This document shows, in pieces, positions 14,794 to 19,694 of a DNA stretch of 64,000 nt. The DNA is taken from NCBI GenBank assembly GCA_003599275.1, contig QZJG01000074.1:5352-69351 (forward strand), in the 5' to 3' direction. The notes under the pieces were generated by a model, which was not told where the DNA came from, made no database searches, and worked only from the letters and a program-made list of their open reading frames with translations. The stretch's first letter is position 1. Each line of letters starts with the position of its first letter. Position numbers and translations under genes: made by a program. Source of the DNA: Nitrospiraceae bacterium. GTDB taxonomy: Bacteria; Nitrospirota; Thermodesulfovibrionia; UBA6902.

Positions 14794-15555
14794 ATGCTTG
14801 CGATATCCCTTCAATCAGGCAGCAACGGCAACTGCATGTATGTCGAAACTAAAGGCGTGAGACTGCTTTTTGACGCCGGTATCACGAGCGTTCAGGCGGC
14901 AGGCAGGCTTTCCGCCCACGGCATCAATATCAGGGACGTCAACGCCCTGATCATATCCCACGACCATGCCGACCACGTCCGTCATGCAGGGGTGTACCAG
15001 AGAAGATTCGGCCTGCCGGTGCATATAACCCCCTCGACAATGCAGAACGCCGCAAAGCGGCACGGCCTGGGGCAGATGGATGATATTAATTATTTCCGGT
15101 CGGGGGACGTCCTTAAATTCGGAGACGTTTCCGTGCATACCATCCCCTCGCCGCACGACGGCGTTGACGGGTCGGTCTTCGTGGTCTGCTCGGGCGACAA
15201 AAAGTTGGGGATATGGACAGACCTCGGTCATGTCTTCAAAGAGCTCTTTTCTCAAATCGCGTCTCTGGATGCTGTCTTCCTCGAAAGTAATTATGACCGT
15301 GAAATGTTGGCCAATGGGCCTTATCCCTGGTTTCTCAAGCAGCGGATACAGGGGCCGTCAGGCCATATCTCCAATGTGGAGGCCGCTGAACTTCTCCTGT
15401 CAGGCGGACGCCTGAAGTGGGCATGTCTGGCACATTTGTCAAAGCACAACAATAATCCCCATATAGCCCTTCAGACACACCGGCGGCTGATCGGGGATGC
15501 CCTTCCCCTGTATGTCGCAAGCCGGCACGAAGCTACAGGTGTAATGACCCTGTAA
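14794..15555 (+). CDS. MBL-fold metallo-hydrolase
   Basis: The HDHADH motif and overall beta-lactamase-fold sequence pattern. Confidence 0.85.
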   Translation: MLAISLQSGSNGNCMYVETKGVRLLFDAGITSVQAAGRLSAHGINIRDVNALIISHDHADHVRHAGVYQRRFGLPVHITPSTMQNAAKRHGLGQMDDINYFRSGDVLKFGDVSVHTIPSPHDGVDGSVFVVCSGDKKLGIWTDLGHVFKELFSQIASLDAVFLESNYDREMLANGPYPWFLKQRIQGPSGHISNVEAAELLLSGGRLKWACLAHLSKHNNNPHIALQTHRRLIGDALPLYVASRHEATGVMTL

Positions 15556-15566
15556 ATTACTCGTCT

Positions 15567-15893
15567 TTACTTGAATGTATTCAGGATATATCCCGCAATC
15601 TCCTTTGCCTCTTTATCGGGGATGGTATTTTCATCGAACTTGTTCATGCCGGGCCCGGGCTCCCGCATAATCTTTACGATATCCTCCTCGGTCTTGATAT
15701 TGTTCGCATCAAGGTCTTTTTTGTGCAGCGGCTTTGCCGGATTAACGGTATTACCGCCCCCGGGATGGCATAACGCGCAATTCTTATTGAATGACTCCTC
15801 TGCCATTTTCATTGACTTCCGGTCCGAGCAGGAAATCGCGAGAAACAGAAATATGCTTACTGCCAAAACAATTGTCACGGAAATTTTTTTCAT
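15567..15893 (-). CDS. small class-I c-type cytochrome, probable lipoprotein
   Basis: The ATG at 15893 follows GGAGAGAAGGG. The signal peptide has a lipobox (LAISC). A single CALCH motif is followed by a PGGGN stretch. Confidence 0.85.
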   Translation of the reverse strand: MKKISVTIVLAVSIFLFLAISCSDRKSMKMAEESFNKNCALCHPGGGNTVNPAKPLHKKDLDANNIKTEEDIVKIMREPGPGMNKFDENTIPDKEAKEIAGYILNTFK

Positions 15894-15919
15894 CCCTTCT
15901 CTCCTTTCCTGTTGAAGGA

Positions 15920-16495
15920 TCAATGCCCTCGGTGATGTGTATGCAGTTTTCTGAGGATCTTCACAGTGCTTGCCTGCGGGCCCTTCTCCCCCTGCTCTTC
16001 CCTGAAGCGGACCTCGGTGCCTACCTTGAGCCTGTCGAAACCGTCAAGCACGCTGTTTTTGTGAAAATATATCTCCCTCGCGCCGGACTCTTCGATAAAT
16101 CCATAGCCCTCCTCCGGGAAGAGTTTCGTAATCACACCATGCGGAAGAAGGTCGTGGTCTTTCACGTCGCCGGACTGAACAAACGCGAACTCCTCAATCT
16201 GCCGGGCCGCGTCGTCAAAGGCATGGTGGACTGCAACCAGTATATCTTCGTGGCTGTGATGAAGGGGATGCTCACGGCTCACAATTATCTGCTTTTCAGG
16301 CACATTGACCATTATGGTAGTTCTGAAGAGATTGCCGGTGTGGTGGTGCTTATGTGGTCTTTCGACCACGACACGGCAACTGGTGATCCTTGGGTAATAG
16401 ACCTCAAGTTTATCAGCCCGTTTCCTGATCTCTTCTTCGAGGACCTCTTTATAGAGATCAACGTCGCGCAATACAATCTGGAGAGGTGTTTCCAT
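15920..16495 (-). CDS. HPF/RaiA-family ribosome-associated protein fused to a cold-shock (CSD) domain
   Basis: The N-terminal part is RaiA-like (PLQIVLRDVDL...ITSCRVVVE). The C-terminal part is CSD-like (GYGFIEESGAREIYFHKNSV...GPQAS). I prefer the ATG at 16495 over the TTG at 16501. Confidence 0.85.
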   Translation of the reverse strand: METPLQIVLRDVDLYKEVLEEEIRKRADKLEVYYPRITSCRVVVERPHKHHHTGNLFRTTIMVNVPEKQIIVSREHPLHHSHEDILVAVHHAFDDAARQIEEFAFVQSGDVKDHDLLPHGVITKLFPEEGYGFIEESGAREIYFHKNSVLDGFDRLKVGTEVRFREEQGEKGPQASTVKILRKLHTHHRGH

Positions 16496-16501
16496 AAGCA
16501 A

Positions 16502-16530
16502 ATGGTATCAATGAATCCCCTGCGTGTCAA
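16502..16530 (-). promoter_or_regulatory. sigma-70 promoter candidate abutting the HPF-CSD start codon
   Basis: On the minus strand: TTGACA (16530-16525), a 17-nt spacer, then TACCAT (16507-16502). The ATG begins 7 nt after the -10 element. Confidence 0.4.
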
Positions 16531-16564
16531 GAGTTGCCCTGATAATTAAAATACAAATAAAAGC

Positions 16565-16866
16565 AAAAAAATAGAGTCATCATCCGGCTCAAACTCCTTT
16601 GGACAACTCCGCCGTAAACACGTGCTGCTTTTAATCACAACACCTTTGGGCAGCGTAACCAATTTGCCTTCAGATGGCTCTATAGGTTGCCTTTTAATGC
16701 GACTCCCGGGAGATTAAACGCTTGAGCTGACTTCTAAGTGGGTGCTTCGGCAGATGCTTCAGGCGTCCTTCATGGAAGGCATGCTCACCACATCCGACTC
16801 CCGCTCCCTAAGCTTATTGGCTTGGTCCTCAGGTCTAACCACCAGGGTATCGCAAGCTCCTTGTCT
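16565..16866 (-). ncRNA. candidate ~300-nt structured noncoding RNA or long leader; family unassigned
   Basis: The stretch is bounded by a near-consensus promoter (16873-16900) and a U7 run (A-run 16565-16571 on the plus strand). No ORF with an RBS is present. Several local hairpins are visible, for example CCUUC-CAU-GAAGG and the palindrome CUCCCGGGAG. Confidence 0.35.
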
Positions 16867-16872
16867 ATCTTT

Positions 16873-16900
16873 ATTTTAGCTCGAATTTATAACTTGTCAA
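16873..16900 (-). promoter_or_regulatory. near-consensus sigma-70 promoter
   Basis: On the minus strand: TTGACA (16900-16895), a 16-nt spacer, then TAAAAT (16878-16873). Confidence 0.55.
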
Positions 16901-17015
16901 GCCCCTGTTGATAACAAGGTCGAAACACTGGAATGGACCGTGGTCCTCAAGTTTCCATGCAGCAATACGATAAGAATATCAGGAGAGGTTCTCTCCTGGA
17001 AAGGAGTTGAGATAC

Positions 17016-17594
17016 ATGCTGGAAAGACCTGATATGGATTCGGGGCACCCTTTAAGAAAACTGTTCAGGAGCGCGCTTGAATACGGGTTCCGGCTGAACC
17101 CTACCGACAAGGAAGGTGTTGCCGACTATATCGAAGAGCAGATACTCTGCGAATTTATTAATCTCGACAACCTGTACAGGATAAAAGACGCAGAGGGAAG
17201 AAGCCTTGAAGATATGGCCGACATGCTTTCCGAAGGAGACATACTCCTGAACGCGCAGAGCTTTGACAGGGAATTCCAGGTCCATAAGCATATAGGAGAT
17301 TACACCCTCTTCATGTTAGGAATGTTCCCCTCGGCCCTTTGCGGCAGAAAGGGGAAAGAGCTGCTGCTTGGCAGTATTGTCGTCCCGGGCGCGAGCCTTT
17401 CCGAACTATATATATTGCAGGGCCGGCACTCTTACCGGATCGCCTCGGAATTCACCAACAGGGAGCTGTTCATGGAGTTGTCAATGAACTTCCAGAAATA
17501 CAGGGCGGTCATCGAGATCGTGAAGACGTATATCGATGCTCTGAGAAACAGCGAGTTTCTTAAGGCAAAAAAGATAATCGGCGGGACAGGTTAG
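17016..17594 (+). CDS. hypothetical cytoplasmic protein
   Basis: A long ORF. The ATG at 17016 lies about 10 nt after AAAGGAG. I recognise no domain. Confidence 0.55.
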   Translation: MLERPDMDSGHPLRKLFRSALEYGFRLNPTDKEGVADYIEEQILCEFINLDNLYRIKDAEGRSLEDMADMLSEGDILLNAQSFDREFQVHKHIGDYTLFMLGMFPSALCGRKGKELLLGSIVVPGASLSELYILQGRHSYRIASEFTNRELFMELSMNFQKYRAVIEIVKTYIDALRNSEFLKAKKIIGGTG

Positions 17595-17604
17595 GATTCT
17601 GATA

Positions 17605-17850
17605 TTACTCCCTGTCCATCCACTCGGGATCGAACTCTTTTAAGACGACGTTCTTCACTCTCTTGAATTTGTCCTTGAAACCGGGTATCAATTCAGCGAG
17701 GGTCATCTTCAGGGATTCAATCTCTATCTTCAGGGAGTCCACCCCTTCCTCAATATCAAGCTTGCCTTTCTCCGCTTCATCTCCTAAAAGTTTGACTTCC
17801 CTCTCCAGCAGTCCCAGTCTCTCCTCAAGTTCCAATTCCTTCTTTAACAT
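17605..17850 (-). CDS. 81-aa coiled-coil protein, function unknown
   Basis: The sequence is heptad-rich and acidic/basic (ELELEERLGLLEREVKLLGDEAEKGKLDIEEG). Confidence 0.45.
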   Translation of the reverse strand: MLKKELELEERLGLLEREVKLLGDEAEKGKLDIEEGVDSLKIEIESLKMTLAELIPGFKDKFKRVKNVVLKEFDPEWMDRE

Positions 17851-17996
17851 AAACTGTCACCTCCTCCACGGCCTTACTGTCTATTATCAAATCCCGCTCG
17901 GGATTGCAAATGATAAACGCAGGATTAAGTCTTTGGAGCGGATGCGGCACATTTGACATCAATGCAGTTTGTAGTAGTATTTGATTAGGGGCAATT

Positions 17997-19694
17997 ATGG
18001 TAGACGACCACGGGAACAAAGAGCATTTATTGCAGAATATGGAAGAAATGCGCCGGCAGCTCCTGGAAGTCGAAACATGTGAAATCGAATTCCAAAAGAT
18101 ACAGAAGAAGTATGAGAAGCTCCTCGACTCGGCCCCTGACGCCATGATTTTTGTAAACAGGGACCGCGAAATTGTTACGGTCAATGCGCAGTTCGAAACA
18201 ATGTTCGGATACGGCCAGGGTGAAATAATCGGCAGGGACCTTCATATACTGGTCCCGGAACGTTTCAGGGACAAACACCGCAATCACGTTGAAGATTTTT
18301 TTTCCAGTCCCAGGGTGCGTCAGATGGGCGCGGACTTTGAGCTGTATGCCCTGAAAAAAGACGGGACGGAATTCCCCGTCGATATCAGCCTCAGTTATTT
18401 GCAGATTGAAGGAGAGCTGATCGCCACCGCAGCCATCAGGGACATTACAAAACGCAAACAGATCGAGGAACAGGTCGAGACGAATTACCACGTCCAGAAA
18501 GTCATGAATTCCATGCTGAGGATATCGCTGGAACCGTTGTCGCTCGACGACCAGTTCGGCCGCATACTGGAGCTGATACTCACGGTCCCGCATCTCGCGA
18601 TGCAATCCAAAGGGGCCATTTACGTAGTGGAAGAAGACAAGCCGGCCCTCCTCGTAATGAAGGCCCACAGGGGATTTTCAGGGGAGGAAATTTTACCATG
18701 TGCGACGGTCCCTTTCGGCAAGTGCCTCTGCGGCGAGGCAGCGGCAGTCGCCGCATTGATCTACTCCGATCAGATTGACGACCGTCACGTGGTCCACTTT
18801 GAAGGGATGTTCCCTCACGGCCATTACTGCGTCCCGATCGTTTCCGGAGACAGACGCACCCTGGGATTGATCAACATATTTGTAAAAGAGGGACATAAAA
18901 GGATCAACGGCGAAGAGGAATTTCTTACCGCCGTGGCGACTACTCTTGCCGGCGTAATTGAGCACAACCGGACGGAACAGGAAAAAAGGCAGCTCCAGGA
19001 GCAGCTCCTGCAGGCTGAGAAACTCGCGGCCCTCGGGAGGTTTTCAGCAAACGTAGCACACGAAATACGGAATCCGCTGACCGCAGTCGGGGGGTTTGCA
19101 AGGAGACTGGACAAAAAGGTCCAGGAAGGGACAAAGGAAAAAGATTACGTAAGCTTCATAATATCCGAGGTCAGCAGGCTGGAAGTCATCCTGAGGAATG
19201 TGCTTACTTACTCAAAGGAGGTCAAGCCGCAGCTTGAGGAATTCGATATCCGTGACATCCTTGACAGGGTGCTGAGTTTAAATGAGGAGGCTTGCCGGGA
19301 GAGGGACATTTCAATAAATAAATCATACGGCGATGCGCCCCGGGTCCTCATTGATAAAGAACAGGTGCTTGAGGCGGTCGAAAACCTTATCCTGAACGCG
19401 ATAGATTCCATGCCTCGGGGCGGCACGCTCACTGCCGCAACGGACGTGGAGACGCACGAGGACAGGCCTTATGTGTGCGTAAGGATAAGCGACACCGGCA
19501 TCGGAATCCCGGAAGACAGATTAAATCTTATCTTTGAGCCTTTTTATACTACAAAGGTGCTTGAGAATGGCACGGGACTGGGTCTCTCCATATCCAAGAA
19601 AGTAGTCGAGTCTCTCGGAGGTTTCGTAAAGGTAGAGAGCGCCGTTGATAAAGGCTCCACCTTTACGCTCTGTTTCGTCTTGAGACCGGAATAA
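17997..19694 (+). CDS. cytoplasmic PAS-GAF sensor histidine kinase
   Basis: A PAS domain (DAMIFVNRDREIVTVNAQFETMFGY), a GAF-like middle region, an H-box (HEIRNPLTAV) and an HATPase domain (GTGLGLSISKKVVE). Confidence 0.9.
   Translation: MVDDHGNKEHLLQNMEEMRRQLLEVETCEIEFQKIQKKYEKLLDSAPDAMIFVNRDREIVTVNAQFETMFGYGQGEIIGRDLHILVPERFRDKHRNHVEDFFSSPRVRQMGADFELYALKKDGTEFPVDISLSYLQIEGELIATAAIRDITKRKQIEEQVETNYHVQKVMNSMLRISLEPLSLDDQFGRILELILTVPHLAMQSKGAIYVVEEDKPALLVMKAHRGFSGEEILPCATVPFGKCLCGEAAAVAALIYSDQIDDRHVVHFEGMFPHGHYCVPIVSGDRRTLGLINIFVKEGHKRINGEEEFLTAVATTLAGVIEHNRTEQEKRQLQEQLLQAEKLAALGRFSANVAHEIRNPLTAVGGFARRLDKKVQEGTKEKDYVSFIISEVSRLEVILRNVLTYSKEVKPQLEEFDIRDILDRVLSLNEEACRERDISINKSYGDAPRVLIDKEQVLEAVENLILNAIDSMPRGGTLTAATDVETHEDRPYVCVRISDTGIGIPEDRLNLIFEPFYTTKVLENGTGLGLSISKKVVESLGGFVKVESAVDKGSTFTLCFVLRPE

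Follow-up and report, generated by a model that had tools for sequence, protein, structure and literature searches.

A region of about 300 nt on the minus strand, upstream of a gene that fuses the Pfam Ribosomal_S30AE domain to a C-terminal CSD (HPF-CSD, 15920-16501), raises the question of whether it is the leader of that gene or a gene in its own right. The region lies in the window, by which we mean the whole 64-kb stretch of Nitrospirota DNA analysed here. An earlier sequence-only reading had described it as a promoter-bearing and structured noncoding region, had favoured an independent RNA linked to ribosome hibernation or cold shock, and had compared it with the raiA motif, with cspA-type thermosensing leaders and with part of 6S RNA. 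On the minus strand of 15800-17600, we found all of the features that this reading had listed, each where it had placed them. Comparative analysis led to a different view of what they belong to. The minus-strand segment 16866..16565 is a self-contained two-domain RNA gene and not an HPF-CSD leader (Table 1).

An independent unit bounded by a promoter and a U-run

The promoter from which the sequence-only reading had started, TTGACA-N16-TAAAAT at 16900-16873, is the best promoter-like site within 15500-18000 and is positionally conserved in homologs. Among homologous loci, TTGAC[AT]-N16-18-TAnnnT occurs at a constant distance from the closing stem of the RNA in 32 of 49, and the -10 hexamer is present in 46 of 49. 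A UAAGAA-like sequence is conserved in the alignments within the short leader that would follow the start site. At the other end, the U7 run that had also been singled out lies at 16571-16565. A U-run is present 3' of the basal stem P1 in all homologs, and sequence conservation stops there. The distance from promoter to terminator predicts an RNA of ~302 nt.

A blastn search with 16910-16502 against 30 relatives showed that ~340 nt are conserved at 65-74% identity (16905-16565). The unit from promoter to U-run is present in all 10 other same-genus genomes, as well as in several other genera, often at two or more loci per genome. The conserved block of the alignment opens with the G-run and TTGACA and closes right after the U-run. 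The boundaries of the predicted gene are fixed by this comparative conservation; transcription would begin close to the predicted start and would be expected to terminate at the U-run. The earlier suggestion of an independent structured RNA is thereby upheld: the region has its own promoter and its own terminator, and relatives conserve it as a unit.

On the far side of the RNA promoter is a divergent 195-aa ORF on the plus strand (17007-17594) that has a GGAG ribosome-binding site and no Pfam match, and that does not lie beside the RNA in other genomes. A stem-loop (16998-16980) occupies the gap between this ORF and the promoter.

Table 1. Features of the two-domain RNA gene and the promoter of the neighbouring HPF-CSD gene (window coordinates)
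Feature	Position	Strand	Remarks
Sigma-70-type promoter TTGACA-N16-TAAAAT	16900-16873	(-)	11/12 consensus positions; G-run precedes
Predicted transcription start (~16866) and short purine-rich 5' leader	16866-16857	(-)	Start placed 7 nt from the -10 hexamer
6S-RNA-like domain, extended rod	16856-16695	(-)	RF00013 match; 162 nt
Closing stem	16853-16844 with 16708-16698	(-)	UGCGAU.CCCU with 3' strand GGG.AUCGCA in the fold of 17 homologs
Lower stem	16831-16828 with 16726-16723	(-)	Covariation
Central bubble, 5' strand, 19 nt	16827-16809	(-)	Small internal hairpin inside
Upper stem	from 16808	(-)	Covariation
Apical hairpin CCUUC-CAU-GAAGG	16779-16767	(-)	Helix 9; aligns with apical loop of Rfam 6S model
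Central bubble, 3' strand, 14 nt, CACUUAGAAGUCAG	16740-16727	(-)	Unpaired; flanked by covarying helices 3 and 5
A/U-rich single-stranded linker joining the domains	16697-16685	(-)	Unpaired in all folds; length 8-14 nt
Conserved 3' domain, long irregular hairpin, ~115 nt	16684-16571	(-)	Covariance model R1
P1, AUAGAG with CUCUAU	16683-16678 with 16576-16571	(-)	
P1b, CAUC with GAUG	16676-16673 with 16581-16578	(-)	
Conserved unpaired CUGAA	16673-16669	(-)	
P2, GGC with GCC	16668-16666 with 16588-16586	(-)	
P3, UUGG with CCAA	16662-16659 with 16602-16599	(-)	
Conserved unpaired AGGAGUUUGA	16598-16589	(-)	AGGAAGCAG in most homologs
U7 tract, predicted intrinsic-terminator tail and 3' end of RNA	16571-16565	(-)	Directly after P1
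Separate HPF-CSD promoter TTGACA-N17-TACCAT	16530-16502	(-)	TG before -10 hexamer; not part of RNA

The 5' domain resembles 6S RNA

6S RNA (SsrS) blocks RNA polymerase in the bacteria in which it has been studied. When 16450-16960 was searched against Rfam, the window copy matched the 6S model RF00013 over model positions 1-187 with 38.5 bits (E 2.3e-6). At the scale of the whole genome (74 contigs, 3.05 Mb) the E value of this match is 3.2e-6, and it is the second-best 6S match there. Because 38.5 bits falls below the gathering score of 46.4 bits, we refer to the window RNA as 6S-like rather than calling it a 6S member. No Rfam family matches any part of the 64-kb window at gathering scores. 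Matches to snoRNA, RUF6 and similar families that appear on the U-rich tail at E <= 10 were set aside as chance.

Within the RF00013 alignment, the apical and bubble-flanking segments have high posterior probability and the closing-stem part is poor. The sequence-only reading had pointed to a likeness to the apical region of 6S RNA, and it is this very segment (GGUGAGCAUGC-hairpin-ACGCCUGAAG) that RF00013 aligns with high posterior probability. Its hairpin CCUUC-CAU-GAAGG is present as described, and all four counted pairs of the corresponding helix 9 have compensatory changes. Two other features of that reading take on a different meaning. The palindrome CUCCCGGGAG does exist at 16712-16703, although it forms no hairpin itself and instead pairs as one side of the closing stem. 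As for the direct repeat, CGGGAGUCG (9 nt) occurs at 16803-16795 and 16708-16700, but it is specific to this copy and is most likely a chance occurrence, since the two segments differ in homologs.

The small hairpin inside the bubble reads AAGC/GCUU in the window and CCAA/UUGG in most homologs; this helix (helix 4) changes on both sides. By the precedent of known 6S RNAs, the 5' strand of the bubble may serve as the pRNA start site.

Structure is conserved and reading frames are not

RNAalifold analysis of 17 full-length homologs gave a 6S-type rod over the first ~180 nt, with a consensus of 52 pairs of which 16 show compensatory changes. We then evaluated a 56-pair structure on 47 full-length homologs from the order, using as controls structures in which the 3' partner was slid by 1-3 columns and 500 shuffles. 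Cells were paired in 88.8% of cases in the given structure, versus 34-46% in the slid and 84.6% in the shuffled controls. Pairs that changed on both sides numbered 34, versus 15-25 for the slid structures and 17.6 for the shuffles, and none of the 500 shuffles reached 34. A closing stem, a large single-stranded bubble and a terminal stem, the architecture of 6S RNA, are kept by compensatory changes. The folding energy of the whole transcript is not unusual (z = -0.85); it is thus covariation that argues for a structure.

The same set of homologs bears on whether the region could instead encode a small protein or an RNA of a mobile element, for example a transposon-borne guide RNA, an account to which we give almost no credence. 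There are several copies per genome, as this account would have it, and the RNA strand of the window copy has two short ORFs, of 27 aa and 38 aa, and no others. However, among ORFs of at least 20 aa in the 47 homologs, the best common stop column is shared by just 12, start positions differ, and indel lengths do not follow a triplet pattern, on which grounds the small-ORF reading is rejected. The sequence-only reading had seen no RBS-preceded ORF in the region, and across the 47 homologs we looked for a conserved small ORF and found none. The copies within a genome, moreover, are ~70% identical and belong to old subfamilies, and ordinary housekeeping genes flank them, with no transposase-like cluster of shared neighbours on inspection by eye. 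The flanking genes and the divergence between copies lead us to reject the mobile-element reading as well.

A conserved 3' domain that probably terminates transcription

The linker is followed by a long irregular hairpin for which we built the covariance model R1, and which that model scores at 94.9 bits in the window. No Rfam family matches this domain in the search of 16450-16960. Its helices (helices 10-12) are 97%, 93% and 70% paired across the 47 homologs. P1 and P1b are separated by a C.A mismatch, in place of which 6 of the 47 aligned homologs have a C-G pair. The unpaired segments CUGAAGGCA and CCAAGGAAGCAGGCC are near-invariant. The feature ACGCUGC...GCAGCACGU from the earlier description is found at 16656-16650 and 16628-16620. 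For the apex of the domain, neither RNAalifold nor a column-pair scan produced a single consensus, and it seems to vary between subfamilies. In one paralog (L071) the 3' hairpin is far shorter, but its base is kept by the compensatory pair ACAGAG/CUCUGU. No part of the RNA varies less than the base and loops of this domain, and the 3' domain surpasses the 6S-like domain in sequence conservation, which means that the selected function may lie in the 3' domain.

In all homologs the P1/P1b stem (11 pairs) is followed by the U-run (U7 in the window), the arrangement of an intrinsic terminator, and the 3' domain probably acts as one. The stem is atypical in its A/U-rich base and in enclosing ~90 nt. 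A simple terminator scan missed it, since the loop that it encloses greatly exceeds 8 nt. Whereas ordinary intrinsic terminators have a short G+C-rich stem, the window hairpin is ~115 nt long with large internal loops and an A/U-rich base. Its sequence is also kept throughout a bacterial class, a degree of conservation that ordinary terminators lack. In having a stem with a U-run right behind it, just where conservation stops, the RNA also recalls Hfq-binding terminator hairpins with a U-tail, and the genome encodes Hfq.

The two-domain RNA is distributed across a class that retains canonical 6S RNA

The lineage belongs to the class Thermodesulfovibrionia of the Nitrospirota and is known only from metagenome-assembled genomes, of groundwater and subsurface origin. 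We counted occurrences with model R1, which was built on the 3' domain alone. Within the order, the 3' domain is found in 37 of 64 genomes, at 1-3 copies each, and is unevenly spread among families (33/49 genomes in f1, 3/7 in f5 and 0/7 in f2-f4). An even sample of the class contains it in 42 of 151 genomes, including three further families in other orders. In the sample of the rest of the phylum, it is found in 0 of 150 genomes (28 of these 150 are from the same class), so that in these samples the RNA is confined to the one class. A metagenome scan contributed 19 further members.

Nearly every 3' domain is directly preceded by a promoter and a 6S-like domain. Elsewhere in the class, outside this order, the 5' domains that precede it give Rfam 6S scores of 54.7 and 46.7 bits, which reach the gathering score, and of 41.9 and 40.4 bits, which do not; the same genomes also contain a canonical 6S RNA at 82-101 bits. 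The genome from which the window derives has its own canonical 6S RNA, at 68.2 bits, on another contig (C7). Across the 30 relatives and the window genome, canonical 6S RNA is present in 31 of 31, and at least two 6S-type matches occur in 15 of the 31. The recurrence of the two-domain arrangement across orders, together with a coexisting canonical 6S RNA, thus points to the two-domain RNA being an old, class-wide 6S paralog. Our literature search found no paper on 6S paralogs in Nitrospirota.

The family has variants at both ends. In one subfamily (L229, L231-L233 and L237), members have the 3' domain and a 5' domain that the 6S model does not recognise at E <= 0.01. The window genome has a third, shorter 6S-type RNA gene on contig C13 (~18326-18149, minus strand; promoter TTGACT-N17-TATAAT) that has the same closing stem (UUGCGAUACCCUG...CAGGGUAUCGCAA); a U-run comes immediately after the stem, and the 3' domain is absent. 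This paralog has no Rfam 6S match at E <= 1, and its 5' half resembles that of the subfamily just mentioned, which carries the 3' domain.

A separate observation concerns locus L220 (G008:C99, 1501-1608 and upstream), which has the 3' domain with only the 3' half of a 6S-like domain and without a promoter. It looks like a 5'-truncated remnant.

These variants bear on which of the two domains carries the function. One account is that the RNA is a structured small RNA unrelated to RNA polymerase, working mainly through its 3' domain as an RNA that titrates or depends on a protein (CsrA- or Hfq-type) or as a base-pairing regulator. The purine-rich unpaired segments CUGAAGGCA, CCAAGGAAGCAGGCC and GGAAGAUGA would be putative binding sites, and the rod an evolutionary remnant or scaffold. 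We regard this as rather unlikely. It would fit the invariance of the base and loops, the GGA-type motifs in those loops, the presence of both CsrA and Hfq in the genome, the subfamily with a 5' domain unrecognised by the 6S model, and the L071 paralog, which retains just a short version of the terminator base. However, the RNA has only two or three GGA motifs, far below the number in known CsrA sponges. The C13 paralog shows that the rod is also kept alone, and the compensatory changes in the rod place its structure under selection.

A second account, which we judge distinctly unlikely, is that the transcript is a precursor of two products. A 6S-type RNA of ~165-175 nt would be cut out at the linker (16697-16685), and the 3' hairpin would be discarded or would become a separate small RNA. 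The linker is a candidate processing site in that it is single-stranded, A/U-rich and variable in length, and the C13 paralog ends directly after its closing stem. Known 6S RNAs mature from longer transcripts; the E. coli ssrS transcript, for example, is processed. Processing of B. subtilis 6S-1 and 6S-2 has likewise been described (PMC10578484). Strong sequence conservation of the 3' domain is nevertheless left unexplained if the hairpin is merely discarded.

The neighbouring HPF-CSD gene is not controlled by the RNA in cis

In the window, the RNA is positioned 35 nt upstream of the HPF-CSD promoter and on the same strand. HPF-CSD is furthermore the immediate downstream neighbour of the RNA in 9 of 52 loci from 6 genera, as identified by flanking-ORF clustering. 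These facts would fit readings that we consider scarcely probable, namely a cis-acting HPF-CSD leader, a thermosensing or raiA-type element, or an RNA whose function is coupled to ribosome hibernation.

The sequence-only reading had noted that HPF-CSD appears to have its own promoter, and TTGACA-N17-TACCAT is indeed found at 16530-16502. The same promoter lies upstream of the orthologs in two genomes (G005 and G008), at loci without a copy of the RNA. It ends a few bases before the start codon, so the HPF-CSD mRNA may be leaderless. In the other 8 adjacent loci, HPF-CSD is convergent with the RNA, lying 23-278 nt past the terminator, and hence cannot be controlled by it in cis; the two are co-directional only in the window. 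Of the 30 relatives searched, 14 have an HPF-CSD ortholog. In the other same-genus genomes the gene lies on other contigs with no RNA copy upstream, and HPF-CSD is near the RNA in 0 of 19 metagenome loci. That the block is conserved while HPF-CSD is on other contigs in most genomes identifies the region as its own gene rather than a leader, and we reject the cis-leader on gene orientation and the lack of linkage in relatives.

The specific motifs that had been suggested do not appear either. Neither the raiA motif, searched on both strands, nor the cspA thermoregulator (RF01766) gives a match in 16450-16960 at E <= 10. The raiA motif has none window-wide at gathering scores, and the RNA ends at its own U-run. 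The only likeness to these elements is the location beside an HPF/RaiA-family gene with a cold-shock domain; the RNA is not a leader and lies mostly away from HPF genes. Of the proposal that a structured RNA is tied to hibernation or cold shock, the structured RNA stands, and the tie comes down to the adjacency of HPF-CSD at 9 of 52 loci. This synteny is a weak hint that could simply reflect gene order inherited within one subfamily.

At eight loci (L199-L201, L205-L207, L209 and L211), the convergent HPF-CSD gene is followed on the same strand by a gene for a conserved ~260-aa protein. By eye, its N-terminus looks PilZ-like and its C-terminal part desulfoferrodoxin-like.

Comparison with known RNAs that act on RNA polymerase

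The window 5' domain shares with 6S RNA a rod-shaped hairpin (~165 nt) in which a large central bubble lies between the closing and terminal stems, a full-length though sub-threshold Rfam match, and a strong sigma-70-type promoter of its own. Like the second 6S paralogs of other bacteria, the window RNA coexists with a canonical 6S RNA. Such second paralogs include Bacillus subtilis 6S-2 and the tandem 6S genes of the B. cereus group (PMC7726162, PMC4793215). Unlike 6S RNA, the window copy scores below gathering, and the RNA is present in up to three copies per genome from distinct old subfamilies. The predicted primary transcript reaches ~300 nt because the conserved ~115-nt 3' domain follows the 6S-like domain, and we know of no 6S RNA with such a conserved 3' domain. 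Known 6S RNAs span about 150-210 nt. None of ~300 nt is known (PMC4191392).

The closest parallel in size and shape is Ms1, an RNA of mycobacteria and other Actinobacteria that was found through its similarity to 6S RNA (PMC4191392, PMC9130861). Both RNAs are ~300 nt, outside the 6S length range, and both have a 6S-like long hairpin with a central bubble. In Ms1, however, the whole 300 nt form one long hairpin, and the binding partner of this RNA is the core form of RNA polymerase, not the holoenzyme (PMC4191392, PMC9130861). It replaces 6S RNA where that is absent and is confined to Actinobacteria (PMC4191392, PMC9130861). The extra length of the window RNA, by contrast, is a separate 3' hairpin and not an extension of the rod, its host belongs to Nitrospirota and has a canonical 6S RNA, and its sole significant Rfam family is 6S. 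The likeness to Ms1 is thus one of size and shape only.

A model for the two-domain RNA

The window RNA has significant similarity to the 6S model, is a paralog of canonical 6S RNA and follows a defined taxonomic distribution. The account that we consider probable is that it is a 6S-type decoy of RNA polymerase with an extra 3' domain, which would terminate transcription and probably also act in some sequence-specific way. The 5' domain (~165 nt) would be a diverged 6S paralog with a 19-nt/14-nt central bubble that mimics an open promoter. Most likely it would bind the housekeeping RNA polymerase holoenzyme as a decoy, beside the canonical 6S RNA that another contig encodes; by analogy with 6S RNA, it may both bind the polymerase and template pRNA synthesis. 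In the 3' domain, the basal stem and U-run would end transcription. The near-invariant base and internal loops would probably form a stability element or a protein-binding module, or may be cut off as a separate product. Several observations temper this account: the window copy is sub-threshold and its closing stem aligns poorly, a length of ~300 nt is unusual, and conservation is higher in the 3' domain than in the rod. One subfamily with this 3' domain escapes the 6S model, the folding energy is unexceptional, and the putative terminator stem has an A/U-rich base.

A more elaborate version, which we think very improbable, would make the RNA a bipartite dormancy RNA. Its 6S-like domain would sequester RNA polymerase while its 3' domain engaged translation, coupling both shut-downs in one transcript. 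The Shine-Dalgarno-like unpaired AAGGAG/AAGGAAG would contact 30S subunits or the cold-shock domain of HPF-CSD, the neighbouring gene in 9 loci.

Implications for 6S RNA in Thermodesulfovibrionia

Few RNAs are known to act directly on RNA polymerase as regulators, and 6S RNA is one of them; extra 6S paralogs have been studied mainly in Firmicutes. Our analyses indicate that Thermodesulfovibrionia, a mostly uncultivated, subsurface group of Nitrospirota, keep a canonical 6S RNA and one to three diverged 6S-like RNAs, most of which carry a conserved 115-nt 3' domain that lies outside any RNA database family. Since the Rfam 6S model misses most of these members at threshold, genome annotation in this lineage lacks them, and alignments of the 6S-like RNA and its 3' domain could seed a new family. 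Should the RNA function as a 6S RNA, a conserved accessory domain would be described in a 6S-type RNA for the first time, and the family would span a wider range of lengths. Should it not, it would represent a new structured RNA, derived from 6S and spread across the class.
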